Shown here: positions 46,917 to 63,639 of the stretch, one piece after another
Layout of the letters: each line of letters opens with the position of its first letter
Position numbering within the stretch: position 1 is the first letter of the stretch
Assembly: GCA_965215265.1 (NCBI GenBank)
Contig: OZ244048.1
Span: forward strand, 3,232,001-3,296,000
Reading direction: 5' to 3'
Origin: Candidatus Poribacteria bacterium
GTDB lineage: Bacteria; Poribacteria; WGA-4E; WGA-3G
Length of the DNA stretch: 64,000 nt
Translations under genes and position numbers: made by a program
Notes under the pieces: generated by a model
Seen by the model: only the letters and a program-made list of their open reading frames with translations
The model's database searches: none
Told to the model about the DNA's origin: nothing

Positions 46917-48509
46917 TTGAAAACAAGGGTTCTCGTGCACCGAGGAATTAGTGTCTTAGCACAGCTAACGATTTTGATGTGTTTCGTTTCTTTTATTGTC
47001 ATACCTGCAACTGCCCAGGTGAGTTACCACGAACAGATTGTCCCTATTCTCAAGCGAAGCTGCCAAGGGTGCCATCACCCTGGCGATGCGAATGGCGATC
47101 TGATTGTCACAACATACGCTGAGCTCAAGCGGGGCGGAATGGCTGGCGAAGCCTTGATACCGGGAAAACCGGATGAAAGTCTAATCATCAAGCTTATTTC
47201 GGGCGATGAGCCCGCGATGCCACAGAACCAAGAACCACTGTCTACTGAAGAAGTGACTCTGTTCCGGCAGTGGATTCTGGAGGGCGCGAACGACGACACT
47301 CCCGCAGAAACTGATGCCCTGGATGAAGGGAACTATCCGGTATACACAGTGCCCCCCGTTATTTCTGCGATGGCGTATTCTCCAGATGGCAGCACGTTGG
47401 CGGTATCTGGGTTCCGCGAAGTTCTATTGTATGATACAGAAACTTTTGAAATCAGCGCACGATTGGTGGGAAAATCGCATCGTATTGAATCGCTTACCTA
47501 TACAACCGATGGAAAAATTTTAGGTGTCGCTGGCGGTTCGCCAGCACAATTCGGCGAAGTGCAATTGTGGGATACTGGAACGAATACGCTCATCAAGGCG
47601 ATGCGTTCGAGCTACGATACCATCTACGGGCTCTCTTTTTCTCCTGATGGGAGTCGAGTTGCATTCGGATGTGCAGACCAAACTGTCCGCGTTCTCTCCG
47701 TTGAAGATGAGACAGAGTTAATTAAATTTGACAATCATAGCGACTGGGTATTCGGGACTATTTTTTCTACCGATGGTTCGCATTTCGTCAGTTGTGGGCG
47801 CGATACAGCTTTAAAGTTGGTTGAAGTAGAAACCGGGTCGTTTGTGGATGATATCAATTCCAGCAATAAAGGGTATGGGGAAATTAATACGCTTGCACGG
47901 CATCCAGCCGCCGACCAGGTGCTAAGCGGAGGAGAGGATAGAATTCCGAGACTCTACAAGATTTTCCGGGAAATCCGGCGGGACGTTGGAAACACAGACT
48001 TCAATCTCATCAAAGCCTACGAAGCGCAATCCGGTTCAATTGAGGCAGTCGCATTCTCGGGAGACGGGAAAAGTTTTGCTGTTGGAAATGCGGCAGGTGA
48101 AGTGCGCGTTTATGATGTAGAAACTGGAACGCGATTATCAACTATGTCCGGGGACACCGTTGGTGTATTTGCAGTAACTTTTCATCCAGATGGTACAAAA
48201 GTCGCCGCCGGTGGTTTCGACGGGAAGATTCGTATCTTTGATGCCGCTACCGGGAAACTTGTCAAAGCCTTTATAGCCGTACCAATCGAAGCCTCAGCAA
48301 CCCAAGACATGGCTTTGACGGTAAGCGGGATGACGTGAGGGGCTTGTGTCGTTAAAGTGCAGGATGCACTCTCAAATCTCCAACACGTTATCAACGTTGA
48401 GGTTTCGCTGCCTGATAAGGCAGTGATTCAGGTTCGGAAGAACGCCATCACCGAAAATGAGCTGGCCAACGTCATTAAAGCAGCTGGGTTTAACGTGCCT
48501 AGGAAGTAG
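46917..48509 (+). CDS. Secreted planctomycete-type cytochrome c + WD40 beta-propeller + C-terminal HMA domain, with a predicted selenocysteine at TGA 48336-48338
   Basis: Signal peptide; CQGCH heme motif and 'PAMP' Met ligand; WD40 repeats. Read-through gives LTVSGMT-U-GACVVKVQDALSNLQHVINVEVSLPDKAVIQVRKNAITENELANVIKAAGF, ending at TAG 48507-48509 (530 aa). Confidence 0.85.
48356..48370 (+). promoter_or_regulatory. Putative bacterial SECIS hairpin
   Basis: AGTGCA-GGA-TGCACT perfect stem; the G-first apical loop lies 23 nt after the in-frame UGA. Confidence 0.65.
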
Positions 48510-48640
48510 AACGCATCATACTGTTTAAGTAAAAATTTAATACGGTATGGATTGCAGGGCACTAACGAAGATGCCCGGCGGAATTTACTGCTTTAATCAA
48601 GAAGGGGTGCTGCTTAAATAGACGACGAGGAGCTCGTAGA

Positions 48641-48686
48641 TTGACGGGAAAAGGTATTGACGTGAGGTCAATACCTTACCCGTCAA
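48641..48686. repeat. Long inverted repeat related to the palindromic element family (possible terminator)
   Basis: ttgacggg-aaaaggtattgac-gtgag-gtcaatacctta-cccgtcaa. Confidence 0.7.
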
Positions 48687-48744
48687 CTGAACGAACATAA
48701 ACTGTTCAAACTTTCGTACGTACGTACATATAAAAGGCTAAATT

Positions 48745-50205
48745 ATGGCTGGTAAAACTCCAAATATCCTCTGGATTTGTACAGATCAGCAGCGTTACGA
48801 TACGATAGGCGTGCTCGGCAATTCCCACGTCTCAACACCGAATATCGATAGTCTGGTTGAAGAGGGCGTTGCCTTTACTCACGCATACTGCCAAAGTCCA
48901 ATATGTACGCCAAGTCGTGCCAGTTTTCTGACTGGTATGTATCCGAGTGCTGTCCATCTGAACGGCAATGGAAATGATTTCTTTCCGAGTACCTATCCCC
49001 TTGTAACTCGGACACTTGCTGATGCTGGGTACGATTGTGGGTTGATTGGGAAGCTACATCTTGCCAGTGCCTACCGGCGGATTGAGCCGCGAGCGGATGA
49101 CGGTTATCGGTATTGGCAATATAGCCACGCGCCGCGGGATGACTGGGAGGTTGGACATGATTATGCTGATTGGGTCCGTTCCAAAGGTTATATTCTCGGA
49201 GAATTGAATCGGGATGCCGCGGGTGTGCCCGCCGAGCTCCATCAAACAACGTGGTGCGCCGAAAAGACGATCGATTTTATACACGAGGAACGTGACGGAC
49301 CATGGCTAGCAAGTGTAAATATTTATGACCCGCATCCCCCCTTCAACCCCCCGCAAAGCCATAGAGAACGATTCAATCCGATCGAGATGCCTGCCCCGCT
49401 TTTCCAAGAGAGCGATCTGGAACAACAGAGACGATTGCAAAACGTCGATTTCCAATCATCCGGACGAACTCCGGACGAACTTGATATTCGGAATCCAATC
49501 TTACCAAAGCGCCCAGGAAGGCACTCATCCACAGAAATAGACTTAATGAGCGGAAGAGATGCACGAACCCTTAAAGCCGCCTATTATGCTATGATTCAAC
49601 TCCTTGATGAACAGATAGGAAGAATACTTGAAACCCTTAAGGAGACAGGTCAACGCGATAACACGCTTATCATCTTTACCAGCGATCACGGTGAAACCCT
49701 TGGTGACCACGGGCTAATTCAGAAAGGCTGTCGATTTTATGAGGGGCTTGTGCGTGTCCCGCTCATCTTCTCATATCCGGAGCAATTTGTCCAAGGCATG
49801 AAAAGCGATGCACTCGTTGAATTGACTGACAAAACCCCAACGTTATTGGAGTTAGTTGGACTTCCGGTGCCGGAAAATATGCACGGCCGTTCGCTACTCG
49901 CTATCCTACGTGGCGAGTCAAATCCGCACCACCATCGCGATTTTGTGCGATGCGAATACTATGATGCCCTTGATATGCCAAATCATACCTTCGCAACAAT
50001 GTACCGCGATAAGCGTTACAAATTAGTTGTGTATCACGGACACGAAGAAGGCGAGTTGTATGATTTAACCGAAGACCCGTGTGAGTTTGATAACTTATGG
50101 CACAGGGCGGAAAAGCAGAACGTCAAATACCAATTGTTGAAACGTAGTTTCGATGCCGCTATGTTTTGCATGGATAGGGGGCCTCGGCGAGTCGGTCCTA
50201 TGTGA
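48745..50205 (+). CDS. Formylglycine-dependent sulfatase
   Basis: 'PNILWICTDQQR', 'CTPSRASFLTG' (CxPxR), 'GKLH', 'PHPP', 'SDHG', 'ELYDL..DP.E'. Confidence 0.94.
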   Translation: MAGKTPNILWICTDQQRYDTIGVLGNSHVSTPNIDSLVEEGVAFTHAYCQSPICTPSRASFLTGMYPSAVHLNGNGNDFFPSTYPLVTRTLADAGYDCGLIGKLHLASAYRRIEPRADDGYRYWQYSHAPRDDWEVGHDYADWVRSKGYILGELNRDAAGVPAELHQTTWCAEKTIDFIHEERDGPWLASVNIYDPHPPFNPPQSHRERFNPIEMPAPLFQESDLEQQRRLQNVDFQSSGRTPDELDIRNPILPKRPGRHSSTEIDLMSGRDARTLKAAYYAMIQLLDEQIGRILETLKETGQRDNTLIIFTSDHGETLGDHGLIQKGCRFYEGLVRVPLIFSYPEQFVQGMKSDALVELTDKTPTLLELVGLPVPENMHGRSLLAILRGESNPHHHRDFVRCEYYDALDMPNHTFATMYRDKRYKLVVYHGHEEGELYDLTEDPCEFDNLWHRAEKQNVKYQLLKRSFDAAMFCMDRGPRRVGPM

Positions 50206-50367
50206 AAAAGTAAAAACATCGGCATCTCCTTTTTTTCTAGGTGAATTTATACATGCAGTCAGCAAAAACGAATACGGACTATCTGTCAACTGATATTGTA
50301 AAAGTCTCCAAGGTTGTGTTGTAGAGAATTGTATCGGCCTACTTAGACCTATTTGATATAAAAGGGT

Positions 50368-51162
50368 ATGATGCTTCAACTAAATACTATCCATTGCGGG
50401 GACACGTTTGAATTACTAAACAGTTTGGAAGATGACTCAATAGATTTAATTGTCTGTGACGGTCCCTATGGTGTAACAGAGAAGGCATGGGATAAGATTC
50501 CGTCGATTCAAGAATTTAACCTAAACCTCATGAAGCGTTTTGCGCCGAAATTAAAACGGGGCGGCTCGTTGTATCTCTTTGGGAAACCTGATTGCATTGA
50601 CTTTATAGATTATCGGCAATTCTTAACGCTGCGTGCAAAGATTGTCTGGTATCAGCCAAGTAGACTCGCGCAAGGACGAATCAATTACACCAATAACTAC
50701 GACATTATCTGCTACTTCATTAAAGGCAAACGCCCAAGGTGCTATAATATTGATGCAATCCGAGTGGATCAACTTGCCGGGTTGACGCACCGGAGACGTT
50801 GCGAGAATGTGCCCTCTGTGGTGAACGGCAAGTTTGGCAAGACGAAATATAATCCGAACGGGAAGAACCCGGGCGATGTGTGGGGTGATATAAAACAGTT
50901 AACCTATAACTCGAAGGAGTTAGTAAGTCGGGAGGCTCTTAATACCATCCAAAAGCCGGAGCGGTTAATTGAACGGATTGTGTTAGCCAGTTCGTCACCG
51001 AGGGATCTGGTCTTGGATGCGTTTGCAGGGGTGGGGACGTGTGCTGTGGTGTGCAAGCGGCATCGGCGGGATTTTATCGGGTTTGAAATGGATCCGGACT
51101 TCGTAAAAATAGGCAATGAACGCCTGTTCTGCGGAGCTAACTCGCCAGAGCTATTTTTCTAA
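50368..51162 (+). CDS. Orphan N4/N6 DNA methyltransferase (beta class)
   Basis: Catalytic 'CDGPYG' (DPPY variant) N-terminal; 'QKPERL', SAM motif 'LDAFAGVGT', 'FIGFE'. Confidence 0.88.
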   Translation: MMLQLNTIHCGDTFELLNSLEDDSIDLIVCDGPYGVTEKAWDKIPSIQEFNLNLMKRFAPKLKRGGSLYLFGKPDCIDFIDYRQFLTLRAKIVWYQPSRLAQGRINYTNNYDIICYFIKGKRPRCYNIDAIRVDQLAGLTHRRRCENVPSVVNGKFGKTKYNPNGKNPGDVWGDIKQLTYNSKELVSREALNTIQKPERLIERIVLASSSPRDLVLDAFAGVGTCAVVCKRHRRDFIGFEMDPDFVKIGNERLFCGANSPELFF

Positions 51163-51189
51163 ACAGATACAAAATTTGTAGTAAGAATT

Positions 51190-51218
51190 TTGACAAAAAC
51201 ATTAGCGCATGATAATCT
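51190..51218 (+). promoter_or_regulatory. Putative sigma70 promoter with extended -10
   Basis: TTGACA-17 nt-TAATCT, preceded by TGn. Confidence 0.55.
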
Positions 51219-51402
51219 CTATGTTATAGAAGAAGAAGGTACAGGACTTGGAGGCTCAAGTTGCTTAACAGTGCATGATAATCTCTATGTTATAGAAGAA
51301 GAGGGTTTTAACCAAACAGTGGTATTTCCACCAACTATTACTGTGATTAATGCCATAGTTTTTTTCAATAAGTTTTAACCAAACAGTGGTATTTCCACCA
51401 AC
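51207..51402 (+). repeat. Two adjacent pairs of exact direct repeats (30 bp and 31 bp), each with a 36-bp unique spacer
   Basis: gcatgataatctctatgttatagaagaaga at 51207 and 51273; gttttaaccaaacagtggtatttccaccaac at 51305 and 51372. Confidence 0.9.
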
Positions 51403-51500
51403 AAAGGCGTTAAATTCCGCACTGATAACGGACAAGTGAAAAATGAAAAACAAATTTCCCCGGCTTGCAGCGGCGGATAAGAGATGTGAAGAGGTAAATT

Positions 51501-54221
51501 ATGAAGCATCACACTGATGAATGCATCGTGCATGAACAGACATTTGAAATAATGAAAGACGTTAAGTTAGCAGTAATTGTGTTTATATTGACTGCAGCGT
51601 TCAATTTAAGTTCCTGGTGTGAAACGTTCACGTACCACTGGGAGATATCTGAGATGCCTTCAGGGGTTGAAACGGTCTCCGTTGTCCAACCGATACAGGT
51701 TGACATACTGGGGAATCTTATACAAGCGAGTTCGGACAGTGCAGCTTTGAAACTCGCAAATTACTACTCTGTCTACCTGTCGCAGCAATGGGAACCTAAT
51801 CAAGCGTACCTATTGCTTCAGATGCTGGAGGCTATACCGCAGCATCGAAATTATCTCGGCAATCCGGAGAGACAAAAAGATCTGAGTTTCTGGTTTATAA
51901 TTGACGGATATGTAGAGAACGATATTCGGTTCAGTGAAATAGGAGGTACGAGGTTTGTTACTATATCGTCTGAGGTGTTTAACTATGCTGATCAGAAGCT
52001 TGCTCGAATCGAAGGTGTGCGTGGGCGCTTCTTCTCCAAGCGACTCCATCACGCCGTCGTTCGGTACGTGACTGACAACGGGGCAGACCGATATGCTATC
52101 GAACGTATCCTACGGGATAGGTATGATGTGCGTGTGAGCGTGCCGGATTATCAGGAACTGACCCGCAACACAACGGGTGAACACGCCGGACGCTTTTCAG
52201 AGTTTAAGAATGAAGAGTTGATCGATATAGTGTCGATGCTGGAGGAATTTCCTTCGGGGATGCTCAAAACCCCGGGGCTGCAGTATCTGGTCCGTCGCCT
52301 GGATGGTACCCCACATCCGTTGCATCCTGAGGCGGGGGCAGTGGCTTGGCCCTCAGCGGGCTACATAGAGTTTATGGAAGGGGCTTTTAAAGGCGGGAGC
52401 CCGGACAGTATTCATCGGTTGATTCTGCATGAGAAAGCACATTTCTTATGGGCACATCTGTTCGATGACCAGCTCAAACAAGATTGGATAGAACTAGGCG
52501 GATGGTTTGAAACTCCAGACGATGGCGATGGGTGGGCTACCACGAAGCAGATTGAATTTGTTTCTGCTTACGCGCACGGGAAAAATCCGAACGAGGATAT
52601 GGCGGAGAGTATCAGTTTTTACATCGTGAATCCGGATAAACTCCGTTCTCGGTCTCCTGCGAAATATGAGTTTATCCAGAATAGAGTGATGCACGGCACG
52701 CGCTACATCTCACGGATACGTGAAGACCTCACTTTCCATGTCTATAACCTCTATCCGGATTATGTCTATCCCGGTAAGATTATACGGGTAGATATCACCG
52801 CGGACGGGGGGCCGGAGGAAGATAAACTGGTAACAGTCGAGATCGAAATTCATGGGGAAAGCGATTTAGATGCGGCACGTTCGCTCTATGTACGGATATT
52901 TAGTGAGGCAGGCACCTTTAACGATATCCGACTATATGCGATAGATGAGAACGGGCGGAACGTCCCAGAGGGGCATGTGTTCAGAGGACAGGAAGTCTTC
53001 TCTCGATATGCTAAAAGTGGGTACTGGGCTCCTGACCAGATTAGCTTTGAAGATGCACACGGTCATGAGAGACATCAGTCGGAGCGTGATTTCGGGTGGA
53101 AACTTTACATAGATAACCCGCTTGAAGATTTAGCCCCGCCTGAATATGTGAAGGACTCGATGGGTCTTGCCTTGTCTCAAGCGGTTACCTCTGATGGCAG
53201 ACCGTATCAGATCGTTACGGCGAGCTGGGAAGTGATAGAGGCCTCCGGTATAGCCAGAGTGAACGCTGCATTGAATGATAATTTTCAGGAGACATATTCG
53301 ACGCTGAACGAATTTGAATATGGCGGCTATGTGCCTGAATTAGGTAAGGTGGTGGTTAAGTTCAATCTACCTGACTATATGCCAAGCGGTATGTACGCGT
53401 TAAACAAAATAGGAATGTTGGATGTTGCGAGAAACTCTTCAAAAGTCTATTTCACTGCTGGTGGCAAGGATGAAGCACCGAAGACGATTCGGGTGGAAAC
53501 GTCACGTCCGGATCTGTCGCCTCCGGTTTTGGATATTAATCGGATAACGGTTCGCGCAGAACCGACTATACCTGAGGCACCTAACGGTGAGACTATCGTC
53601 GATATTAGTTTCTGGATTAAGGACAACATCAGCGGTTATGCCAAAAGTGGGATGTATTTACGGGATCCGCACGGTGTTATGCATCATTTTTGGCATTTGC
53701 CGCCCGGGCGTGGCAGCTTGTATTTCAACGGGGATCCGACAGTTTTTAAGGAATATCACCAACGGATAGTTCTACCCGTAGGTAGCACCCCCGGCACATG
53801 GGGCTTAGCCGAAATGACACTGTTCGATAAAGCGAGTAACATCCTGAAATTGGACTTTACCGAGATTGTTAGATTTGAGGTCGGTGATAATCCGGCCGCT
53901 CCGACATTGCTGCTGACGAGCATACCTGAAAGGACTCAACTCTTGACTAACTATCCGAATCCGTTTAATCCTGAGACATGGATCCCGTATCATTTATCTG
54001 AAGGCACAGATGTCAAAATCAGAATTTGCGATATTACGGGCTCGCTGGTACGCTTAATCGATGTAGGTTTCCAACCTGCGGGGTTCTATGAGTCAAGTAG
54101 CAGAGCAGCAAGGTGGGATGGGCGTAACGGTTTCGGTGAGCAGGCTGCGAACGGCATTTACTTCTATCAGCTAGATGCCGGCAGTCTATCCGATTTACGA
54201 AAAATGGTGATATTGAAATAG
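51501..54221 (+). CDS. Secreted putative zinc metallopeptidase with Ig-like repeats and a C-terminal FlgD-Ig/secretion-tail domain
   Basis: Signal-like N-terminus; HExxH 'LHEKAH' plus downstream 'NPNEDMAES'; C-terminus 'LLTNYPNPFNPETWIPY...WDGRN..GE..A.GIYFYQL..RKMVILK'. Confidence 0.8.
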   Translation: MKHHTDECIVHEQTFEIMKDVKLAVIVFILTAAFNLSSWCETFTYHWEISEMPSGVETVSVVQPIQVDILGNLIQASSDSAALKLANYYSVYLSQQWEPNQAYLLLQMLEAIPQHRNYLGNPERQKDLSFWFIIDGYVENDIRFSEIGGTRFVTISSEVFNYADQKLARIEGVRGRFFSKRLHHAVVRYVTDNGADRYAIERILRDRYDVRVSVPDYQELTRNTTGEHAGRFSEFKNEELIDIVSMLEEFPSGMLKTPGLQYLVRRLDGTPHPLHPEAGAVAWPSAGYIEFMEGAFKGGSPDSIHRLILHEKAHFLWAHLFDDQLKQDWIELGGWFETPDDGDGWATTKQIEFVSAYAHGKNPNEDMAESISFYIVNPDKLRSRSPAKYEFIQNRVMHGTRYISRIREDLTFHVYNLYPDYVYPGKIIRVDITADGGPEEDKLVTVEIEIHGESDLDAARSLYVRIFSEAGTFNDIRLYAIDENGRNVPEGHVFRGQEVFSRYAKSGYWAPDQISFEDAHGHERHQSERDFGWKLYIDNPLEDLAPPEYVKDSMGLALSQAVTSDGRPYQIVTASWEVIEASGIARVNAALNDNFQETYSTLNEFEYGGYVPELGKVVVKFNLPDYMPSGMYALNKIGMLDVARNSSKVYFTAGGKDEAPKTIRVETSRPDLSPPVLDINRITVRAEPTIPEAPNGETIVDISFWIKDNISGYAKSGMYLRDPHGVMHHFWHLPPGRGSLYFNGDPTVFKEYHQRIVLPVGSTPGTWGLAEMTLFDKASNILKLDFTEIVRFEVGDNPAAPTLLLTSIPERTQLLTNYPNPFNPETWIPYHLSEGTDVKIRICDITGSLVRLIDVGFQPAGFYESSSRAARWDGRNGFGEQAANGIYFYQLDAGSLSDLRKMVILK

Positions 54222-54262
54222 TCAGGTGCGTATTAGTTTGCGTAAACAGATGAGGAGGCAAT

Positions 54263-55084
54263 ATGGGACGGAAAATTGGAATTTATTTGACTTTTATGCT
54301 GCTTTGTGTTATAAATATTAGCAATGCGGCTGTGAAAGTAGGATTTGTTTATCTGGGTGATAATGGACCATTTACCTCGCCTGCATTGGAATTCGCAGAG
54401 AAGGCATTCGAAACCACACAGTTGGCGAAAGGCGACCTGAAGAGCGGGACGTTTAAACAGTACGGTGTGGTGTGGTGGCATGAAGGCGACAGCGACCCGG
54501 GGGCTCTGTCCAATGCAGAAATTCAAGCGTTTTTGGATTATGCCGAGAGCGGTGGTGCGGTGCTATTGACAGGGTGGGCGATTCGCTATGCAACGCCCAT
54601 GGGGCTTGAAAAGGCAGAAGCCCGTGCCTTCGGGCCCGTCGCGGAAGATGGAATCAACGTTGGCATTACCGTGCTAGAGCAGACGCTGGATCTCGGTTTG
54701 GTGGAAGGACTCGAAAATATAGATGGAAAAATCCCACAAGTCGACGATAGAATTCAGGTGAATTCAACAGGTTACCCTAAAAGCGGGGATTATTATGACA
54801 AAATTTGGACGGATTTCATTACGCTCGCGAATGCGTGGGGTCCGCCTGCTAACGATTGGGGAGACCGAATTGCAGCTTTTGGGTATTGGGAAGCTGGCAA
54901 CGGAAAAATCTTCAATATGAATTGGCGGCTCCCAAACTACCACAAAAATAACAAGGATATTGAGCAGCTGGAACGACTGACAGAAAACGTTATCAATTGG
55001 TTGGCGAGTGAATCAGAATTCGCTGAAGTTTCTCCCGCCGATAAGTTATCGATGGTCTGGGGAGAGTTGAAAAACCAGAGGTAA
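54263..55084 (+). CDS. Secreted protein, class I glutamine amidotransferase-like fold, with a conserved C-terminal 'V.P.DKL...WG.LK' tail
   Basis: Signal peptide; 'FLDYAESGGAVLLTG', 'GNGKIF', 'LTENVINWL'; ends AEVSPADKLSMVWGELKNQR. Confidence 0.7.
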   Translation: MGRKIGIYLTFMLLCVINISNAAVKVGFVYLGDNGPFTSPALEFAEKAFETTQLAKGDLKSGTFKQYGVVWWHEGDSDPGALSNAEIQAFLDYAESGGAVLLTGWAIRYATPMGLEKAEARAFGPVAEDGINVGITVLEQTLDLGLVEGLENIDGKIPQVDDRIQVNSTGYPKSGDYYDKIWTDFITLANAWGPPANDWGDRIAAFGYWEAGNGKIFNMNWRLPNYHKNNKDIEQLERLTENVINWLASESEFAEVSPADKLSMVWGELKNQR

Positions 55085-55213
55085 ACACAACTCGGACAAT
55101 CAGCATTTTTGAATTTTACACGGTTCTAACTGAAAATTTCGGTGATACGAATAGAGTCTGTCCCAGGGGGTAGACACCTAACGAAAAGTTTCATATCACG
55201 CTTGGAGGATAAT

Positions 55214-57694
55214 ATGAAACCCAACTTTAACTTTGTCACGGCACTCCTTATGGCAATAACATACACCATCTGTTTTAGCTGTCCGCTAATAGGTTGGTGT
55301 CAAATGGAGAACGCCGGGCACGTCGAAATTCCCAAAGTTACGGCGTTGAAAGTTCAACCCATGTCCCTGACACTGGAACACGCACGCGATGGCCGCCGTG
55401 TTGTTGTATCAGGACGTACACAAGATGGTAGCTGGATCGATGTAACGCGCTGGGCGATCCTTACAGCCACGGATGCTAAAGTCGAAGTGCAACAAGATGG
55501 CTATATCTACCCGAAAGCAACCGGTGCTACTAAAGTTGCTGTCACGCTCAAGGGCCTCACTACAGAGTTACCGGTTGAAGTGAAGAGCATGGATGCCCCT
55601 GCAGTCAGTTTCGTACGAGATGTCATGCCGGTCTTGAGTCACGCTGGTTGTAACAACGGCACTTGCCACGGTGCTGCTAAGGGAAAAAATGGATTCAAGT
55701 TGTCCCTGCGCGGCTATGATCCGGAGTTTGACTATGAGCTCTTAATTGCAGATATCTCTGGACGCCGCTTTAACCGCGCATTTCCTGAACAGAGTTTAAT
55801 GCTGCTCAAGCCGACATCCGAAGTCCCGCATAAAGGTGGCCAGGTGATTGTCCCTGGTTCTAAGGACTACCGGCTTATCCACCAATGGATATCTGAAGGG
55901 GCTGTTTCTGACGTAAAGACCACTCAGCGGGTAGAACGTTTAGAGGTACTGCCCAATTCGTCTGAGTTGGCAATGCCCGGAGCAAAGCAACAGTTAATAG
56001 CGATTGCGCATTATCCTGATGGAACGATGCGTGATGTTACCCGCGAGGCGAAATTTACGAGCAGCGTTAATGAAGTGGCGAAAGTAAATGACGACGGAGT
56101 CGTCACGGCTGAACGTCGCGGCGAAACCGCGATACTGACGCGTTACGAAGGTGCTTATAGTACAAATGGCATCATCGTGATGGGCGATCGAAGCGGCTAC
56201 AAGTGGGTTGAAACCGCGGAATATAACTATATTGATACACACGTCCACAACAAACTCAAGCGGATGAAAATTCTGACATCTGAGCTTTGTACGGATGAAG
56301 AATTTGTGCGTCGAATCTATCTTGATTTAACCGGCATCCCGCCGACACCAGACCAGGTACGTAGTTTCCTTAATGACGGTACCCCGTCCAAGGCGAAGCG
56401 CGAACAGTTAATTGATGTCTTGGTTGAAACGCCAGAGTTTGTCGACCATTGGGCACATAAATGGGCAGATTTGTTGCAGTCTAACCGTAAGTTTCTAGGA
56501 GAACGCGGGGTGTGGCTTTTCCAGCAATGGATTCATGAGTCGATTGCTGAGAATCGTCCGTACGATCAGTTTGTCCGCGACCTGATTACTGCAACAGGGA
56601 GTAGTTACACCAACCCGGCTGCTAATTATTTCCGCGTTTCCCGTGAGTATACTGCTGCTGTGGAAAATACGACGCAACTCTTCTTGGGTGTTCGTTTTTC
56701 ATGTAATAAGTGCCACGATCATCCGTTTGAAAAGTGGACGCAAAACCAGTATTATGAGTTCGGTGCGTTCTTCGCGGATGTCAAGGTAAAGCCGGGGCAG
56801 CTGCCCGGTGATGAGGTGGTTTATGCGAGTTTCGCCGAAACGCCTGTGAAACACCCGCGAACCCTTGCCGTGGTTGAACCAACAGTACCTTTTGGCAAAG
56901 TAAATTCAGAGACTGAGGATAAACGTGCAATGCTCGCAGAGTGGCTCACAGATGCCGACAATCCTATGTTCGCACGGGCAGGTGTGAATCGCCTCTGGAG
57001 TTATTTCATGGGACGCGGTATTATTGAGCCCGTTGATGATATTCGAACGAGTAACCCGCCGACCAATCCTGAGCTTCTTGATGCGCTGACACAAGATTTT
57101 GTGACGAGTGGTTTCGATCTCAAGCACATGATGAAAACCATTACACGTTCCAGAACCTATCAGCAGAGCATCAAAACCAACAAGTGGAACAAGGCAGACA
57201 CCATTAATTTTTCTCATGCTGTTGCGAGACGTTTGACAGCAGAACAGTTGCTGGATTCCATCGGTGTTGCAACTGGGAGCCGCCCGAAATTTGAGTCGAT
57301 GCCCAAAAGCTTCAGAGCCGTTCAATTGCCGGATAGTAAGGTCAAAGATGATGGGTTTTTGAAGTTGTTCGGTCGTCCGGAACGTGAGACTTCGTGTGAA
57401 TGCGAACGGACTACAGAAGTCAGCCTTGCACACGCGATGAACCTTATTAACGGGCCGACGGTTGCGGATGCGCTGATAGATAAAAACGGCCGGATTGCAC
57501 AACTCCTTAAAAAGAATGTGGATAACCGAACTATAGTTGAGGAGTTGTACCTTGCGACGTTTTCGCGGTTGCCATTGGAGCATGAGTACAAAGTAGCAGT
57601 TGAACATCTCGCAAACGCCGAATCAAAGGAAGCAGGCGCGCAAGATTTGTTGTGGGCGTTGATTAACAGCCCCGCATTTTTATTTAATCGGTAA
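55214..57694 (+). CDS. DUF1549/DUF1553 (PSCyt2/PSD1) protein with Ig-like (BIG2) domains
   Basis: 'SFVRDVMPVL...GCNNGTCHG...GFKLSL', 'DEEFVRRIYLDLTG.PPT', 'CNKCHDHPFEKW', 'NRLWSYFMGRG', 'RRLTAEQL', 'FLFNR'; GGAGG before ATG 55214. Confidence 0.92.
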   Translation: MKPNFNFVTALLMAITYTICFSCPLIGWCQMENAGHVEIPKVTALKVQPMSLTLEHARDGRRVVVSGRTQDGSWIDVTRWAILTATDAKVEVQQDGYIYPKATGATKVAVTLKGLTTELPVEVKSMDAPAVSFVRDVMPVLSHAGCNNGTCHGAAKGKNGFKLSLRGYDPEFDYELLIADISGRRFNRAFPEQSLMLLKPTSEVPHKGGQVIVPGSKDYRLIHQWISEGAVSDVKTTQRVERLEVLPNSSELAMPGAKQQLIAIAHYPDGTMRDVTREAKFTSSVNEVAKVNDDGVVTAERRGETAILTRYEGAYSTNGIIVMGDRSGYKWVETAEYNYIDTHVHNKLKRMKILTSELCTDEEFVRRIYLDLTGIPPTPDQVRSFLNDGTPSKAKREQLIDVLVETPEFVDHWAHKWADLLQSNRKFLGERGVWLFQQWIHESIAENRPYDQFVRDLITATGSSYTNPAANYFRVSREYTAAVENTTQLFLGVRFSCNKCHDHPFEKWTQNQYYEFGAFFADVKVKPGQLPGDEVVYASFAETPVKHPRTLAVVEPTVPFGKVNSETEDKRAMLAEWLTDADNPMFARAGVNRLWSYFMGRGIIEPVDDIRTSNPPTNPELLDALTQDFVTSGFDLKHMMKTITRSRTYQQSIKTNKWNKADTINFSHAVARRLTAEQLLDSIGVATGSRPKFESMPKSFRAVQLPDSKVKDDGFLKLFGRPERETSCECERTTEVSLAHAMNLINGPTVADALIDKNGRIAQLLKKNVDNRTIVEELYLATFSRLPLEHEYKVAVEHLANAESKEAGAQDLLWALINSPAFLFNR

Positions 57695-57731
57695 TAGGTT
57701 TGTAGTATAGAAAAAATGGAGGAAACAACTG

Positions 57732-59177
57732 ATGTTATCGTTACCTCAAATGCCTGGACGCTTGTGTGACGGGTTTTCTCGTCGTGAATTTATCCGCGTC
57801 GGCGGTGCAGCAATGCTGGGCATCAGTCTACCACAAGTTTTGGCGCTCCAAGCCGAAGCGAATACGACAGTCGATCCCGCGAAACCTCTAAACGGATGGG
57901 GAAAAGCAAATGCTGTTATTCTCCTCTTTTTGCAAGGCGGCCCGAGCCATCTGGATATCTGGGACCCGAAGCCGGAAGCGCCATCTAATATCCGGGGGGA
58001 ATTCAACCCGATTCCGACGAACGTCCCGGGGATACAGTTGTCTGAAACCATGCCCCGTTTGGCACAGCAGATGGATAAAGCGTGCCTCATCCGATCGGTA
58101 AGTTATACCCCGGCAGGTCTTTTCAACCATACGGCGGCGATGTATCAGATGGTGACGGGCGAAACGCCGGATAAGGTTGCTCCATCTGGGCAGCTTGACC
58201 CGCCGTCCCCTGCAGATCATCCCAACGCCGCGGCACACATCGCAAACTTCCGTCCGCCCGATGAACCGATGCTGGCGGCTGTCCAACTCCCACGCCCGAT
58301 GCAGGAAAGTAACATCATCGGTAAGGGCGGGAATGCTGGCTTCCTCGGTAGGGCCTATGATCCGTATTTCCTATTCCAGGATCCAAATCAAGAGATTAAT
58401 CTTGACGATTTGACGTTGAGGCCGGAAGTGCCGCCTGTGCGTCTGAAACGACGGAAAAACCTACTAGAAACGATTAACGCCGGTATGCCGGAAATTGATA
58501 AGGTTGCTGACTCTTACGCGCTCAATGAATATTATGAGAAGGCGTATAACCTCATCTTGTCCCAACGTGCGCGTAATGCATTTGATTTGTCTCAAGAATC
58601 CGATGAAATGCGTGACCGTTACGGCCGGCATACCTTCGGGCAAAGTGCGCTGCTTGCACGCCGTCTAGTTGAAGCTGGTACGCGTTTTGTGCAGGTGAAC
58701 TGGCCCTCTGTTGCTAACGGTGATCCGAACACGACAGCCTGGGATACGCACGCCACCAATTTCGGACCGCTCAAAAACTTGCACTGTCCGAAATTAGATA
58801 GTGCGGTTTCTTCACTCTTGGAAGACTTGGATGGGCGTGGCATGTTAGATGATACCCTGGTGTTGGCTATCGGTGAATTTGGCCGTTCTCCACGGATGGG
58901 CATTAGTACCTCCGGAAATAGCAATGCCCCCGATGGGCGTGATCACTGGCCGTATTGCTATACTGGCTTAATTGCGGGTGCCGGTGTACAGGGTGGGCAG
59001 GTTTACGGCAAGTCGGATGCCACTGGCTCAACACCACTTGAGAACCCGGTGCATCCACGCGATATTCTTGCGACAGTCTACCATACGCTCGGAATCGATC
59101 CGCATACTATCGTGTTAAATCACTTAGAACAACCTCGCGAATTGGTGAAAGGCGAACCGATTGCTGGGATTTTCTAA
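57732..59177 (+). CDS. DUF1501 family protein (Tat-exported, alkaline-phosphatase/sulfatase-like fold)
   Basis: Tat motif 'SRREFI', 'LFLQGGPSHLDIWDPKP', 'ARRLVEAGTRFV', 'WDTH', 'GEFGRSP', 'GRDHW'. Confidence 0.93.
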   Translation: MLSLPQMPGRLCDGFSRREFIRVGGAAMLGISLPQVLALQAEANTTVDPAKPLNGWGKANAVILLFLQGGPSHLDIWDPKPEAPSNIRGEFNPIPTNVPGIQLSETMPRLAQQMDKACLIRSVSYTPAGLFNHTAAMYQMVTGETPDKVAPSGQLDPPSPADHPNAAAHIANFRPPDEPMLAAVQLPRPMQESNIIGKGGNAGFLGRAYDPYFLFQDPNQEINLDDLTLRPEVPPVRLKRRKNLLETINAGMPEIDKVADSYALNEYYEKAYNLILSQRARNAFDLSQESDEMRDRYGRHTFGQSALLARRLVEAGTRFVQVNWPSVANGDPNTTAWDTHATNFGPLKNLHCPKLDSAVSSLLEDLDGRGMLDDTLVLAIGEFGRSPRMGISTSGNSNAPDGRDHWPYCYTGLIAGAGVQGGQVYGKSDATGSTPLENPVHPRDILATVYHTLGIDPHTIVLNHLEQPRELVKGEPIAGIF

Positions 59178-59195
59178 CCCGAATCACTTCCTCTA

Positions 59196-59224
59196 TAGGG
59201 GCGGATTCGCATATCCGTCCCTAT
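59196..59224 (+). terminator. Hairpin downstream of the DUF1501 gene (terminator or REP-like)
   Basis: agggg-cggat-tcgcat-atccg-tccct inverted repeat. Confidence 0.45.
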
Positions 59225-59826
59225 CCAATCTTCGCCAGGATAAACAGAAATTAAAGTAGATATGGACATCTCCTTTAATAGCCAATTTAGGCTAAAAAGC
59301 AATGCCAAAAGCGATGCAGAACTCTCCGTAAAAGGTTTCATTACCCCAATTGAATACATGAAACCTAACTTTCACGTGGAATGGGGTGCATTGGCGAATT
59401 TGCGTGTTGCTGAGCCTGAAAAAAATATCCTGCATCAATTTTCTGAGATTTTCTCCCGCCTAAGGCCGTTCTCGTTGGTGAATGCTGGCCGATTCAAAAA
59501 CACGGCGTGCTTGCATTGTTATACTCCGTTTCTACAAATCCCAACAAATTCATTGGATACCGTTTGAAGAATCTTTGGAAATAGTGCCTGCACAATAGAA
59601 GTTTGATGTACTTCTGACTGATGAATCGTGCTGAGGAAGTGGCAAAAACTTGAGGGCAGTTGTCCTCTCTGATAGACAGAATATTGAATTTTTGAATGAC
59701 AATTTCATCGACGGATGGGTGCGTAATACTGCACTAAGGCGACAGCGTGATACCAAAGGACTTGACCGAATGCGAGTCTTGGCAAGTATAGTCATTAATT
59801 AATCTCAAAACATGAGGTAATCAGAA

Positions 59827-62424
59827 ATGCATGACAGGTTATTTCATAGGAAAAAGCGTGACAATTTTTTATATAGTGTTCAAACAGAGGTATCTCAGTG
59901 CGAAAAAAGGATTATCAAGTTCGTGAGAGATAGTGCGGCATGCTTGCTACAATACTTCTACTTCTTAGCAACGCGGTTATCTATCGTCTTTTTCATCTTT
60001 TTCATGGATATCGGGATGGTGCAAGCACAACGGCCGCCTGAACTGACTGACATTTTTCCACAAGGTGGACAGCAAGGGAACGTTGTTGAAGTGGCACTAA
60101 GCGGTAAAAATTTTGGAGCGGGCGCAACGTTATGGTTCAGTGGGGATGGCATTGCTGGCGAAATCAAAGAAAAAATGGGCGAAGCTGCGGTGCTGTTTAA
60201 CGGTGCAGGCATCTCAGGGCATATCCCAAAAGATGAAAGTTTGGTTGCATCTTTGACAATCGCGCCCACCACACCCTTAGGTATACAGCAGATACGTATT
60301 GTTACCCCACACGGTGTCTCTAATGCACGAAGTTTTGTGGTTGGGGCTCTTCCAGAAATAATAGAGGATGACACGGCTGCTACGCGCGATTCAGATAACT
60401 GGCTGGAGTTACCTGTCACGGTAAACGGCAGCATCGCTTCAATTGATGATGTGGATGCCTACAACTTTAGCCTAAAAAAAGACGCGAGACTGATCTGTGA
60501 TGTGACGGCACAGCGCATAGGTTCTTTACTCGATTCTTACCTTGTATTGCGAAATGCTGATGGCACTGAAGTTGCAACCAGCGGACTCGGAAATGGGTTT
60601 GATTCATTATTGGATTACACCGCAACCGTCGCTGGAAAATATACACTTCAGATTCGAGATATCCGATATAAAGGGGGCGGAGGTTACGGCTATCGGTTAA
60701 GCGTTGGAGAATTGCCCTATCTTGAAACTATATTCCCGCTTGGTGGACAGCGCGGTTCAGAAAACACAATTGCCCTCAGTGGTGCCAACCTTGGAACGTT
60801 TGAGTCTATAGAGATATCGATCGGAGGAAAAACGGAGGTAGGCAACCAGTCGTTGAGAGTAAAAACCTCGTCTGGATTAGTTACGAATCCACACGCTTTT
60901 GCCATAGGACACTTAGCGGAAATGACCGAGGCTGAGCCCAACAACATTTTCGAAAAAGCAACTCCTATCACGCTACCTCTAACCGTCAACGGGAAAATTG
61001 ATAAACCGGGGGATGTTGACCAGTTCTCATTTGAGATAAAAACGGCGCAACGTCTCGTATTTGTCGTGAATGCGCTTTCCTTGGGTTCACAACTGGATGC
61101 ACTGCTCACGCTTTACGATGCAGAGAATACGGCTGCAGAGTCCGACGAAGGTATGGACGGCGAGAATCTGAAAAAGACTAATGTTTTGATGTTCAATGAC
61201 GATGCAAGCGGTGCGGATGCCCGCATTGAATGGATGTTTGAAAAGGCTGGGAAGTATTCGATCTCTGTCCGAGATTTGAATAACCATGGTGGCACGGATT
61301 ATCCGTACCGGCTTAGCATCCGGCCGTTACAACCAGATTGTGAACTCGCGGTAGTTGCGCTTGATAACCGTAACCGCCCTATAACCTTGGATACGCCTCG
61401 TGTTTATCGTGGGGGTAGTGTCGCAATGGAGGTTGACGTAACACGACTTGATAGTTTTGATGGCCCAATTCACTTAACTTGTCCGGCGTTGCCAAAAACG
61501 TTTGAGGTGAGCCACACCGTTGTTGAAGCAGGACAAAATCGGGCGCTTCTGACGGTAACTGCGCCGTCGGATGCGCCGCTTGGGCTAATACCGGTTTCTG
61601 TCGTCGGCGTTTATGCTGTTGGCAATAAACAGATGGAACGTGCTGCTACGCCGAATCCTATTCTACTCACCGTAATGGACAAACCGCAATTTTCGCTAAC
61701 ACTTGCTGAAATTAGTTTAAGCATTGTTCACAACAAGACTGCTAATCTTCACGTAACTGCAGAGCGAAGCGACGGTTTTGTCGGCCCGATTGTCTTGTCA
61801 GTCTTAGGACTTCCCAATCGTGTTTCCGCCATACCTATTACGATAACTGAAGGGAAAACCGAATCAACACTTTCGATTAAAGCCGGAAGTTTTGAGCGAA
61901 GGGAGCAATTCTCTGTTGTACCACCACCCGGCACAAATTATATTTCGGTCATCGGGAGCGCGACTATCAATGGCGACACCGTCAAACAGAGCACGCCTGC
62001 CATCCCATTGACAATTGTCGAGGCACCTTTCATTGTAACCGTGGAACCGTTACGCTTTAGTATGGTCTTCCCTGCAACTGCGGCACCGGAAGCGGAAACC
62101 GTACCAATTGCCGGTACAACCCAAGCCGAGGGCGGAACGGGGGAGCAAAGTGCTACCACAAAGGAGGCGATATTAACGTTGAGTGTGGTACGGCAAGGCG
62201 GCTTCACAGATGAAGTAACGCTTACACCGTTAGGTTTGCCCAAAGGCATCACGACTTCTAAAGCGACAATTCCTGCTAACGAAACCGAGGTTAAGATTCC
62301 GCTACACGCAGTTAGTTCCTTAACGCCGGATACATACCAGTTTAAGTTCCATGGCTCGGCGATGATTAACGGGACGCTTTTTGAACAAGAGAGTCCGGTT
62401 ATCAGTGTTAAGATTATTCACTAA
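59827..62424 (+). CDS. Secreted PPC (pre-peptidase C-terminal) domain protein, planctomycete type; true start probably downstream
   Basis: 'IFPQGGQQG', 'LPVTVNG.I....DVD.Y.F', 'EAEPNN', 'NDDA', repeated PPC units. Confidence 0.85.
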   Translation: MHDRLFHRKKRDNFLYSVQTEVSQCEKRIIKFVRDSAACLLQYFYFLATRLSIVFFIFFMDIGMVQAQRPPELTDIFPQGGQQGNVVEVALSGKNFGAGATLWFSGDGIAGEIKEKMGEAAVLFNGAGISGHIPKDESLVASLTIAPTTPLGIQQIRIVTPHGVSNARSFVVGALPEIIEDDTAATRDSDNWLELPVTVNGSIASIDDVDAYNFSLKKDARLICDVTAQRIGSLLDSYLVLRNADGTEVATSGLGNGFDSLLDYTATVAGKYTLQIRDIRYKGGGGYGYRLSVGELPYLETIFPLGGQRGSENTIALSGANLGTFESIEISIGGKTEVGNQSLRVKTSSGLVTNPHAFAIGHLAEMTEAEPNNIFEKATPITLPLTVNGKIDKPGDVDQFSFEIKTAQRLVFVVNALSLGSQLDALLTLYDAENTAAESDEGMDGENLKKTNVLMFNDDASGADARIEWMFEKAGKYSISVRDLNNHGGTDYPYRLSIRPLQPDCELAVVALDNRNRPITLDTPRVYRGGSVAMEVDVTRLDSFDGPIHLTCPALPKTFEVSHTVVEAGQNRALLTVTAPSDAPLGLIPVSVVGVYAVGNKQMERAATPNPILLTVMDKPQFSLTLAEISLSIVHNKTANLHVTAERSDGFVGPIVLSVLGLPNRVSAIPITITEGKTESTLSIKAGSFERREQFSVVPPPGTNYISVIGSATINGDTVKQSTPAIPLTIVEAPFIVTVEPLRFSMVFPATAAPEAETVPIAGTTQAEGGTGEQSATTKEAILTLSVVRQGGFTDEVTLTPLGLPKGITTSKATIPANETEVKIPLHAVSSLTPDTYQFKFHGSAMINGTLFEQESPVISVKIIH

Positions 62425-63132: not shown

Positions 63133-63639
63133 TTGGGGGCAGAGACAGAAGTGGTATCTCGACGTAAATTTTTCAAATTTTTGGGTTGGGGGAATTTCAC
63201 AGCGGCACTGGGTCTGAGTTTTGGGCCGGGTTTGGTTCGCTACCTATATCCACGTGTGTTGTTTGAACCGTCTTCTATTTTTAAAGCGGGCTTCCCAGCC
63301 GAGTACCCGCCGGGAAGCGTGAGTGAAAAATTTAAAAAAGAACCTTTTGGTGTTTGGATTGTCCGCCGGGAAGATGGCGAGTTCTATGCGTTGTTAACGA
63401 TTTGTACGCATTTGGGCTGTACGCCCCGTTGGCTCGGTTCGGAAAATAAATTCAAGTGTCCATGCCACGGGAGTGGTTTTGACCGAGATGGGTTAAACTA
63501 TGAAGGTCCAGCGCCTCGTCCTCTTGAGCGCGTTAAAATTACCTTGGCAGAAGATGGCCAGATTGAAATCGACAAATCAGTTAAGTTTTTAGGTGAAAAG
63601 GGCCAGTGGGGCGATCCAGGTTCCTTTTTGAAAGTTTAG
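63133..63639 (+). CDS. qcrA: Rieske 2Fe-2S subunit of a cytochrome bc complex
   Basis: Tat motif 'SRRKFF', 'CTHLGC', 'CPCHGS', 'GPAPRPL'. Confidence 0.92.
   Translation: MGAETEVVSRRKFFKFLGWGNFTAALGLSFGPGLVRYLYPRVLFEPSSIFKAGFPAEYPPGSVSEKFKKEPFGVWIVRREDGEFYALLTICTHLGCTPRWLGSENKFKCPCHGSGFDRDGLNYEGPAPRPLERVKITLAEDGQIEIDKSVKFLGEKGQWGDPGSFLKV

Follow-up and report, generated by a model that had tools for sequence, protein, structure and literature searches.

A predicted selenocysteine-containing HMA tail on the cytochrome c-WD40 subunit of a four-gene DUF1501 module in Candidatus Poribacteria

Introduction

Is the TGA that ends the reading frame of a cytochrome c-WD40 gene in a Poribacteria genome an ordinary stop, or is it decoded as selenocysteine (Sec) and followed by a metal-binding domain, and what would such a domain say about the gene module around it? 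The gene in question lies in a 64,000-nucleotide stretch of Candidatus Poribacteria bacterium (assembly GCA_965215265.1, contig OZ244048.1, positions 3,232,001 to 3,296,000 of the forward strand), hereafter called the window, together with genes for a DUF1549/1553, a DUF1501 and a PPC domain protein. The DUF1501/PSCyt/PSD module has been on record since 2012 as a conserved and multiply duplicated system of Planctomycetes, Verrucomicrobia and their allies; to our knowledge, it has neither a solved structure nor a known substrate. Positions below are counted from the first letter of the window; coordinates with the prefix C1 are those of the genome contig.

In the part of their paper that deals with DUF1501, Kamneva et al. 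2012 (PMC3542564) described the "most complex gene clusters" around this domain as consisting of four genes. These encode a DUF1501 protein exported by twin-arginine translocation (Tat), a protein with weak PPC domains and a signal peptide, a PSCyt1/Big_2/PSCyt2/PSD1 protein and a PSCyt1/WD40 protein. The function of the clusters was given there as unknown, and membrane-targeted electron transport was suggested. He et al. 2017 (PMC5615132) reported, in the section on these genes, that PSCyt genes often neighbour sulfatases. Sec in the CxxC of HMA domains has a precedent as well, since the table of a review (PMC9312934) lists UxxC in cation-transporting P-type ATPases and UxxU in a putative mercuric reductase.

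Results

The four-gene module of the window

The four module genes lie on the + strand within 15.5 kb (46917-62424). A sequence-only reading of the window had placed four co-oriented exported proteins at 46917, 55214, 57732 and 59827; all four genes are there, and their domains match those it had named. It is highly likely that the region is the Poribacteria version of the four-gene DUF1501 module of Kamneva et al. 2012. The four-gene module is single in this genome, which also encodes two further DUF1549/1553 and DUF1501 pairs and some orphan genes. The module genes and the elements of the PSCyt1-WD40 gene are the following:

46917-48509, + strand: predicted PSCyt1-WD40-HMA selenoprotein gene, 530 codons with UGA 474 as Sec
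46917-48338, + strand: open reading frame (ORF) of the same gene without read-through, 473 codons, ending at TGA 48336-48338
47061-47075, + strand: CQGCH haem c attachment motif, residues 49-53, in PSCyt1
48312-48497, + strand: HMA domain by Pfam match, residues 466-527, containing G-M-T-U-G-A-C
48336-48338, + strand: in-frame UGA, predicted U474, at the first Cys of CxxC in the orthologue alignment
48354-48372, + strand: hairpin resembling a selenocysteine insertion sequence (SECIS), recognised by frozen synonymous sites and by its identity in family f4 and in paralogues
48507-48509, + strand: TAG, the true stop of the read-through gene, from translation past the TGA
55142-57694, + strand: DUF1549/1553 (PSCyt2/PSD1) protein, 850 amino acids (aa), likely start ATG at 55214
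57732-59177, + strand: Tat-DUF1501 protein, 481 aa, PF07394, SRREFI motif
59827-62424, + strand: PPC protein, 865 aa, predicted exported or anchored, with Ig-like repeats; start position uncertain

The PSCyt1-WD40 gene continues through an in-frame TGA

The product of the PSCyt1-WD40 gene begins with a hydrophobic segment that resembles a signal peptide; a PSCyt1 domain for one haem and a WD40 propeller follow, and an HMA domain forms the C-terminus. In the profile scan PSCyt1 scored 37.5 bits against a cut-off of 22 and WD40 scored 101 bits. Residues C49, C52 and H53 of PSCyt1 were invariant in 23 diverse homologues, and CxxCH was present in 44 of 45 orthologues of the WD40 protein. Translation past the TGA at 48336-48338 gave ...TVSGMT-U-GACVVKVQDAL... 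and added 56 residues. In a stretch of 79 residues around the TGA the Pfam HMA model (PF00403) scored 43.5 bits against a cut-off of 24.8 (E 4.3e-11). The first beta strand of the domain and the GMT are encoded 5' of the TGA, which splits the domain, and the GMTCxxC loop is present as GMT-U-GAC, with Cys at this position in the orthologues of the genus labelled g9.

The best 120 homologues in a collection of 5.8 billion proteins were 439-494 aa long, 69-99% identical and covered 83-89% of the read-through protein, from which we concluded that their gene calls had been cut at the TGA; those with names were "Candidatus Poribacteria" hypotheticals. When 121 Poribacteria genomes were searched with stop codons read through, 80 of the 81 others that share the family of our genome gave a match with exactly one TGA and 71-85% identity, which reached residue ~527 of the 530, and five g9 genomes gave a full-length match without a stop. 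The loci themselves were then read. GM[TM]-U-xx-C was found in all 36 genomes of the family, our own included, and the UGA column held TGC or TGT (GM[TS]CGAC) in all four g9 loci; GM[TS]CGAC was also present in locus L105. In family f4, two genomes carry GMTUGAC behind a longer linker. At two loci of another family the protein stops just past the propeller, and genomes G080 and G008 have no tail. Across the 36 genomes the 56 codons 3' of the TGA were conserved as protein, while synonymous change was free outside the hairpin described below. A word-based search with residues 425-530 returned seven truncated Sec forms and no Cys form; this search is insensitive and says nothing on other phyla.

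The hairpin, AAAGUGCA-GGA-UGCACUU, was common to all Sec forms. It lies 19-35 nt past the UGA, and its apical, GG-containing loop starts 23 nt past the UGA. Codon -1 was ACG in 35/35 sequences of the family alignment. At codons +6 to +12 we found AAA (32/33), GTG (36/36), CAG (36/36), GAT (29/30), GCA (35/36), CTT (31/35) and ACA (29/29), so that the synonymous entropy was close to 0 over these codons, compared with ~1-2 bits in the flanks. The hairpin was letter-identical in f4 despite a protein identity of 57-58%, and also identical in two paralogous HMA selenoprotein genes of the same genome. The Cys forms, with AGAAC as their loop, have lost the GG.

The genome, a single contig of 4.83 Mb, encodes the machinery for Sec. 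A tRNA-Sec scored 80 bits and has a TCA anticodon according to ARAGORN; SelB is encoded directly upstream of it, and SelA is encoded as well. SelD itself contains one in-frame TGA, in KCAG-U-ASK (C1:4044300-4045226, locus L012). Inspection by eye showed a similar short stem, with CGGGU as its loop, ~15-30 nt downstream of the SelD UGA.

Because the TGA has conserved flanks and Cys orthologues, the hairpin is frozen, the Sec machinery is present and the database calls are truncated, we concluded that the PSCyt1-WD40 gene is very probably a real selenoprotein gene in which UGA 474 is decoded as Sec. The fusion of a Sec-containing HMA domain to this protein, proposed in the sequence-only reading, thus holds up on the read-through HMA match, the Sec genes, the TGA in orthologues and the synonymous freeze.

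Distribution and origin of the HMA tail

That reading had taken the fusion as a Rosetta-stone clue to the chemistry of the module in general. Among the 150 best representative homologues, a list dominated by long multi-WD40 proteins, none had an HMA motif, and in the PSCyt1-WD40 homologues among them the last blade has a conserved "VPVP" about ten residues before the end of the protein. We then ran a local HMA profile on 100 loci, translated in six frames with Cys for TGA. The only matches were in 34 Poribacteria loci, all at the 3' end of the WD40 gene; the 57 loci from other phyla gave none, and thus no HMA gene, fused or separate, was found there within ~10 kb. In a 36-row tree of the cytochrome-plus-propeller part the Poribacteria formed one clade (support 99/97), with HMA-less forms nested inside it: G080 stands beside the f4 Sec forms, and f5 and L078 stand beside the f1 Sec forms. 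At least two losses or several gains of the tail follow from this nesting. The generalisation to the whole module is not supported by these results. With no HMA in any of the 57 other-phyla loci and HMA-less forms nested among the Sec and Cys forms, the tail looks like a dispensable, Poribacteria-specific accessory and not like a part of the module core.

We also asked where the Cys of the g9 genomes came from. Loss of the Sec trait was rejected as its origin, because SelA is present in 5/5 g9 genomes; the Cys is therefore a change at the WD40-HMA locus.

Five HMA domains were found in the genome under study, three of them interrupted by TGA: the one in the window and those of two tandem genes (C1:2909752-2910201 and 2910249-2910617; locus L065, 7752-8617). 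The tandem genes encode lipoprotein-like exported HMA proteins, and both have the in-frame TGA in VTGMTUGAC...KVQAAL and the hairpin of the window gene. No mer or cop genes were found among their neighbours in this genome. Stand-alone HMA selenoprotein genes were present in 55 of 61 Poribacteria genomes, mostly as tandem pairs and almost all with one TGA. By family they were found in 36/36 (f1), 6/6 (f2), 11/11 (f3) and 1/1 (f4) genomes; for f5-f8 (0/6) none was found with the query used. Genome G060 contains an array of eight stand-alone HMA matches. Since stand-alone genes occur also in genomes without the WD40 gene (f2, g7) and in g9 genomes, the most likely source of the tail, judging from the sequences, is this family of small exported HMA selenoproteins, which is widespread in the order.

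Linkage of the module genes within and beyond the Poribacteria

To see whether the four genes stay together in relatives, we compared 20 regions, each of 20 kb, from related genomes. The genes for WD40(-HMA), DUF1549/1553, DUF1501 and PPC proteins had the same order and strand in 17 of the 20 regions. They were directly contiguous in five, four of them g9 regions and the fifth locus L064, which come from more distant Poribacteria, and the WD40 gene stood alone in three. In the window's own family the sulfatase gene, often the methylase gene, and the gene for a 273-aa protein sit between the module genes. Identity within the phylum was 82-97% for DUF1501, 64-86% for DUF1549/1553, 58-85% for WD40-HMA and 41-71% for the PPC protein.

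A scan with the DUF1501 protein against one genome per species gave 80 loci, 23 of Poribacteria type and 57 from other phyla. The latter came from Verrucomicrobiota, Acidobacteriota, Planctomycetota, Armatimonadota, Acidimicrobiia and others, and their DUF1501 was 57-71% identical to that of the window (mostly 63-71%). A PSCyt1-WD40 gene was present in 28 of these 57 loci and all four genes in 21; where the flanks were wide, all four were found in 14 of 25. The earlier statement that the four-part cluster recurs is thus confirmed, both by these counts and by the four-gene clusters in the DUF1501 part of PMC3542564. The gene order differs between phyla, with 1549-1501-PPC-WD40 in Verrucomicrobiota and WD40-PPC-1549-1501 in Acidobacteriota. 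As the linkage was kept through this shuffling of the order, it argues for a functional coupling of the four genes.

DUF1501 was far more conserved across phyla than its three partners. On sequence comparison this suggests either a heavily constrained enzyme or a recent spread between phyla.

The DUF1549/1553, DUF1501 and PPC proteins

The domain order of the DUF1549/1553 protein is Ig-like, divergent PSCyt1-like with CNNGTCH, weak Big_2 (19.5 against a cut-off of 22.8), PSCyt2 with CNKCHDHP, and PSD1; PSCyt2 and PSD1 were clear in the profile scan. CxxCH-type motifs had been expected for this protein, and both the N-terminal C-x4-CH and the C-x2-CHDHP were found in 55 of 55 orthologues. Pfam gives no PSCyt1 for the C-x4-CH region, which aligned by BLASTP with the PSCyt1 of the WD40 protein (E 1e-4), with two extra residues inside the motif. 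A structure model of PSCyt2 and PSD1 (residues 350-850; 56189-57691) was mostly helical and had a predicted local distance difference test score (pLDDT) of 88 and a predicted template modelling score (pTM) of 0.89. It gave no Foldseek matches at E <= 0.001. By VIA the last 150 residues gave the best match, to a phycobilisome linker domain, with a Z of 6.4, which is below the noise that the tool states for helical models.

The DUF1501 protein matched PF07394 with 343.6 bits and has a twin-arginine motif, SRREFI, at residues 16-21. Its model, built from 44 sequences (pLDDT 75, pTM 0.80), gave 104 Foldseek matches at E <= 0.001 with the LtaS structures 4uor and 2w8d on top and template modelling scores (TM-scores) of 0.3-0.45. 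DUF1501 thus models as an alkaline-phosphatase-superfamily fold. The earlier description of DUF1501 as a Tat-exported protein with a metalloenzyme-like fold agrees with both the motif and the model. Residues invariant in the orthologues and three paralogues include S72, D78, K80, N132, H133, D338, H340, E382, R385, R403, D404 and H405. The formylglycine motif C/S-x-P/A-x-R is absent from the DUF1501 sequence.

In the 865-aa protein the PPC domain scored 39.6 bits against 25.9, and the N-terminus appeared hydrophobic by eye. Sequence searches of the PDB with the DUF1501, DUF1549/1553 and PPC proteins returned matches to Ig-like or PPC domains only.

Genes between and beside the module genes

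On the + strand the order of genes is: indolepyruvate/pyruvate-ferredoxin-oxidoreductase-like, shikimate dehydrogenase, PSCyt1-WD40, sulfatase, methyltransferase, T9SS-tail protein, 273-aa hypothetical, PSCyt2/PSD1, DUF1501, a 101-codon ORF, PPC protein and Rieske. The genes between and beside those of the module include the following:

48745-50205, + strand: type I sulfatase with CTPSR motif, between module genes
50368-51162, + strand: N6/N4 DNA methyltransferase, an intervening gene kept in part of the family
51501-54221, + strand: 906-aa protein with a C-terminal sorting domain of the type IX secretion system (T9SS), an insertion seen in this genome only
54263-55084, + strand: 273-aa exported hypothetical, directly 5' of the DUF1549/1553 gene, conserved within the family only
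63133-63639, + strand: Rieske protein with Tat motif, a neighbour and the first gene of an operon

Four genes, a sulfatase, a methylase, a peptidase and a secreted protein, had been read between the WD40 gene and the rest of the module. Genes are present at all four places, and the sulfatase and the methylase were borne out. The peptidase was not: in the T9SS-tail protein (51501-54221) the domain scans recognised only the sorting tail and an Ig-like domain, and no peptidase or other catalytic domain. Its gene was absent from all 20 related regions and is therefore a recent insertion. The sulfatase has the CTPSR motif, no signal peptide was obvious by eye, and its position is kept within the family. 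In much of the family the sulfatase and methyltransferase genes separate WD40-HMA from the other module genes, an odd but stable interruption of a cluster that resembles an operon. The 273-aa protein is a hypothetical found in Poribacteria only. The 101-codon ORF (59262-59567), located between the DUF1501 and PPC genes, has a 52%-identical copy at C1:3112082-3112273 and weaker copies at the matching intergenic place in three relatives (L069-L071). These copies could mean that the ORF is a small mobile or repeated element.

The operon that continues after the Rieske gene and beyond the window (C1:3295790-3301088, locus L149) encodes a split cytochrome b, with a 256-aa b6-like and a 288-aa petD-like part, followed by two cytochromes c, one multihaem of 1052 aa and one of 118 aa. 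It is a b6f-like variant of complex III with a giant cytochrome c subunit. A possible link of the module to the bc complex had been raised from this neighbourhood. Only within the window's family were the Rieske/cytochrome b genes found beside the module. They occurred there in 7 of the 20 regions, at a distance that varied, and none of the five contiguous regions was among these; such a link is not supported.

Discussion

What is already known of this locus is the four-gene module (2012) and the use of Sec in the CxxC of HMA domains; new is the Sec-HMA tail on the PSCyt1-WD40 subunit. The window shares the Tat-DUF1501, PPC and PSCyt1/WD40 architectures, the PSCyt2 and PSD1 of the fourth protein and the recurrence across phyla with the module in the DUF1501 part of PMC3542564. 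It differs in the Sec-HMA tail of the WD40 subunit, which is not mentioned in that part of the paper, in the three or four unrelated genes that break the cluster, and in the first haem motif of the PSCyt2/PSD1 protein, which is C-x4-CH and not a Pfam PSCyt1. To the known range of the module the present scan adds metagenome-assembled genomes of Acidobacteriota, Armatimonadota and Acidimicrobiia. The literature that we searched describes no cytochrome c-WD40-HMA(Sec) protein and no HMA selenoprotein family of Poribacteria. Neither HMA, heavy metal, WD40 nor Poribacteria occurs in the main texts on BSepDB and deep-Sep, to which this part of the search was confined; their supplements may list the fusion.

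Among known HMA selenoproteins, Sec replaces the first Cys of GMTCxxC in the same way, as in NF041115 (UxxU metal-binding (seleno)protein), and the same swap is found in NF045683 (MerT/CopZ fusion-like heavy metal transport selenoprotein). Those are cytoplasmic pump or reductase domains, or small or MerT-fused proteins, whereas here the domain is fused to an exported cytochrome c-WD40 protein, which scored far below the cut-offs of both models (37.8 against 95 for UxxU and 15.6 against 375 for MerT/CopZ-like). With MerP and CopZ the tail shares an HMA domain of ~70 residues with GMT(C)xxC, and the predicted export is like that of MerP; CopZ and MerP were also the best NCBIfam matches. Unlike them it has Sec and is not free-standing, and no mer or cop genes lie beside the window gene or its free paralogues. 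DUF1501 has the predicted fold and the invariant Ser and Asp/His pairs in common with LtaS, type I sulfatases, phosphonate monoester hydrolases and MCR-1. It is unlike these enzymes in its low TM-scores, the lack of the formylglycine motif, the Tat signal and the constant pairing with a PSCyt2/PSD1 protein.

HMA domains bind Cu(I) or Hg(II) by two thiolates and swap the metal with a partner HMA domain, as between CopZ and CopA or MerP and MerT. The explanation that we favour, and hold to be reasonably likely as a whole, is that the window encodes a module subunit with a Sec-HMA tail that takes part in an envelope assembly and in the hand-off of a soft metal. SelB and Sec-tRNA would bind the hairpin, and Sec would be inserted at codon 474. 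The PSCyt1-WD40-HMA protein would be exported unfolded by the Sec (secretory) pathway and receive its haem c at CQGCH in the periplasm. There it would join the PSCyt2/PSD1 protein, with two further CxnCH sites, DUF1501 and the PPC protein in one envelope-associated assembly. The Se/S pair of the tail would most likely bind a soft metal of the Cu(I) or Hg(II) kind, which could be swapped with the free HMA selenoproteins by ligand exchange from HMA to HMA. The haem c in this polypeptide may either reduce the metal or hold the Se-S pair in its reduced state. For the metal binding and hand-off taken alone, which rest on analogy with other HMA domains, we would speak of a plausible role and stop short of calling it probable. 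Since the UGA is placed right at the beginning of the accessory domain, failed decoding at low selenium would end the protein after 473 residues, in a form that equals the HMA-less one of other phyla, and the tail would be an optional, selenium-dependent add-on. A wider proposal extends to many phyla: the module would be a periplasmic machine in which c-haems feed electrons to soft-metal or chalcogen species that the alkaline-phosphatase-like enzyme processes, with the Poribacteria tail filled by free HMA selenoproteins and the UGA acting as a selenium switch. This proposal is speculative and in our view improbable.

Several observations weigh against the Sec-HMA hand-off reading. Folding of single sequences after the UGA was unremarkable (z -0.7, +0.1 and -2.1). 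The hairpin stem is invariant and shows no compensatory changes, so covariation cannot be scored. A scan of 48200-48600 against Rfam at E <= 10 gave no SECIS family, and chance snoRNA matches only. The scores against the NCBIfam models of CopZ (38.7 against 91), UxxU (37.8 against 95) and MerP (31 against 92.55) are low, and the tail is therefore not a member of the CopZ and MerP equivalogs. Signal peptides and hydrophobic N-termini were judged by eye, and the backbone of the tree had a support of only 85-89. Several Poribacteria lineages have lost the tail or never acquired it, and the g9 genomes have Cys while SelA is present in all five. From the last two points it follows that neither the tail nor selenium is essential to the module.

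Four other explanations were considered. If TGA 48336 were an ordinary stop, the HMA-like frame downstream would be a decaying remnant or a product of chance. The gene callers do end there, and the folding of the hairpin from single sequences is, as said, unexceptional. The protein-level conservation of the 56 downstream codons over 36 genomes, the splitting of the HMA domain with its first strand and GMT upstream, the Cys orthologues that read straight through and the full Sec machinery are contradictory to this explanation, which we find hardly credible. The UxxC could instead be a redox-active selenenylsulfide and the tail a thiol-disulfide oxidoreductase that exchanges electrons with the haem c of its own chain or with a partner. 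Most bacterial selenoproteins have their Sec at a redox-active UxxC or CxxU, according to the table of PMC9312934 and the abstract of PMC1794560. A haem c domain is present in the same polypeptide and the module has three CxnCH sites. However, the HMA match is clear, with the GMT(C/U)xxC metal-binding signature, the nearest curated models are metallochaperones and MerP, and known HMA selenoproteins are filed as metal-binding in that review table (P-type ATPase UxxC, mercuric reductase UxxU) and in the entries NF041115 and NF045683. A redox role of this kind is accordingly unlikely in our judgement.

The tail might also be a tethered detoxification or buffering device of the MerP/CopZ kind, parked on an abundant periplasmic protein and unrelated to the chemistry of the module. 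The free exported counterparts in 55/61 genomes, some of them without the WD40 gene (f2, g7), and the repeated loss of the tail are in line with this. Yet 80 of 81 genomes of one family have kept the fusion with its Sec codon and hairpin, as has a second family at an identity of 57-58%, which argues for selection on the fused state and makes a merely parked device rather improbable. Finally, the HMA-Sec domain could be a metallochaperone that loads DUF1501 after export, and the whole module in all phyla a metal-dependent redox complex. The genes are linked, and the modelled metalloenzyme fold of DUF1501, with the invariant Asp/His pairs D338, H340, D404 and H405, would suit a metal acceptor. 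Against it stands the Tat motif of DUF1501: export by Tat usually means that a protein is folded and loaded with its cofactor beforehand, with some exceptions. The alkaline-phosphatase superfamily moreover uses the hard metals Zn, Mg, Ca and Mn, not the soft ones favoured by Se and S. DUF1501 orthologues of 57-71% identity were also found without an HMA domain nearby in all 57 other-phyla loci, and likewise in HMA-less Poribacteria. Loading of DUF1501 by the tail is thus very unlikely.

For annotation, the Sec-HMA tail means that the PSCyt1-WD40 gene is cut at its Sec codon in at least 80 Poribacteria species. The truncated calls of the WD40-HMA gene and the in-frame TGA of the stand-alone HMA genes in 55 of 61 genomes imply that the selenoproteome of sponge-associated Poribacteria may be underestimated. 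The natural Cys orthologues of the g9 genomes offer an easy route to expression and to metal-binding assays. For the DUF1501 module, the fusion to a metal-binding selenoprotein domain is a first concrete and testable hint on its chemistry, even if it is found in one phylum only.

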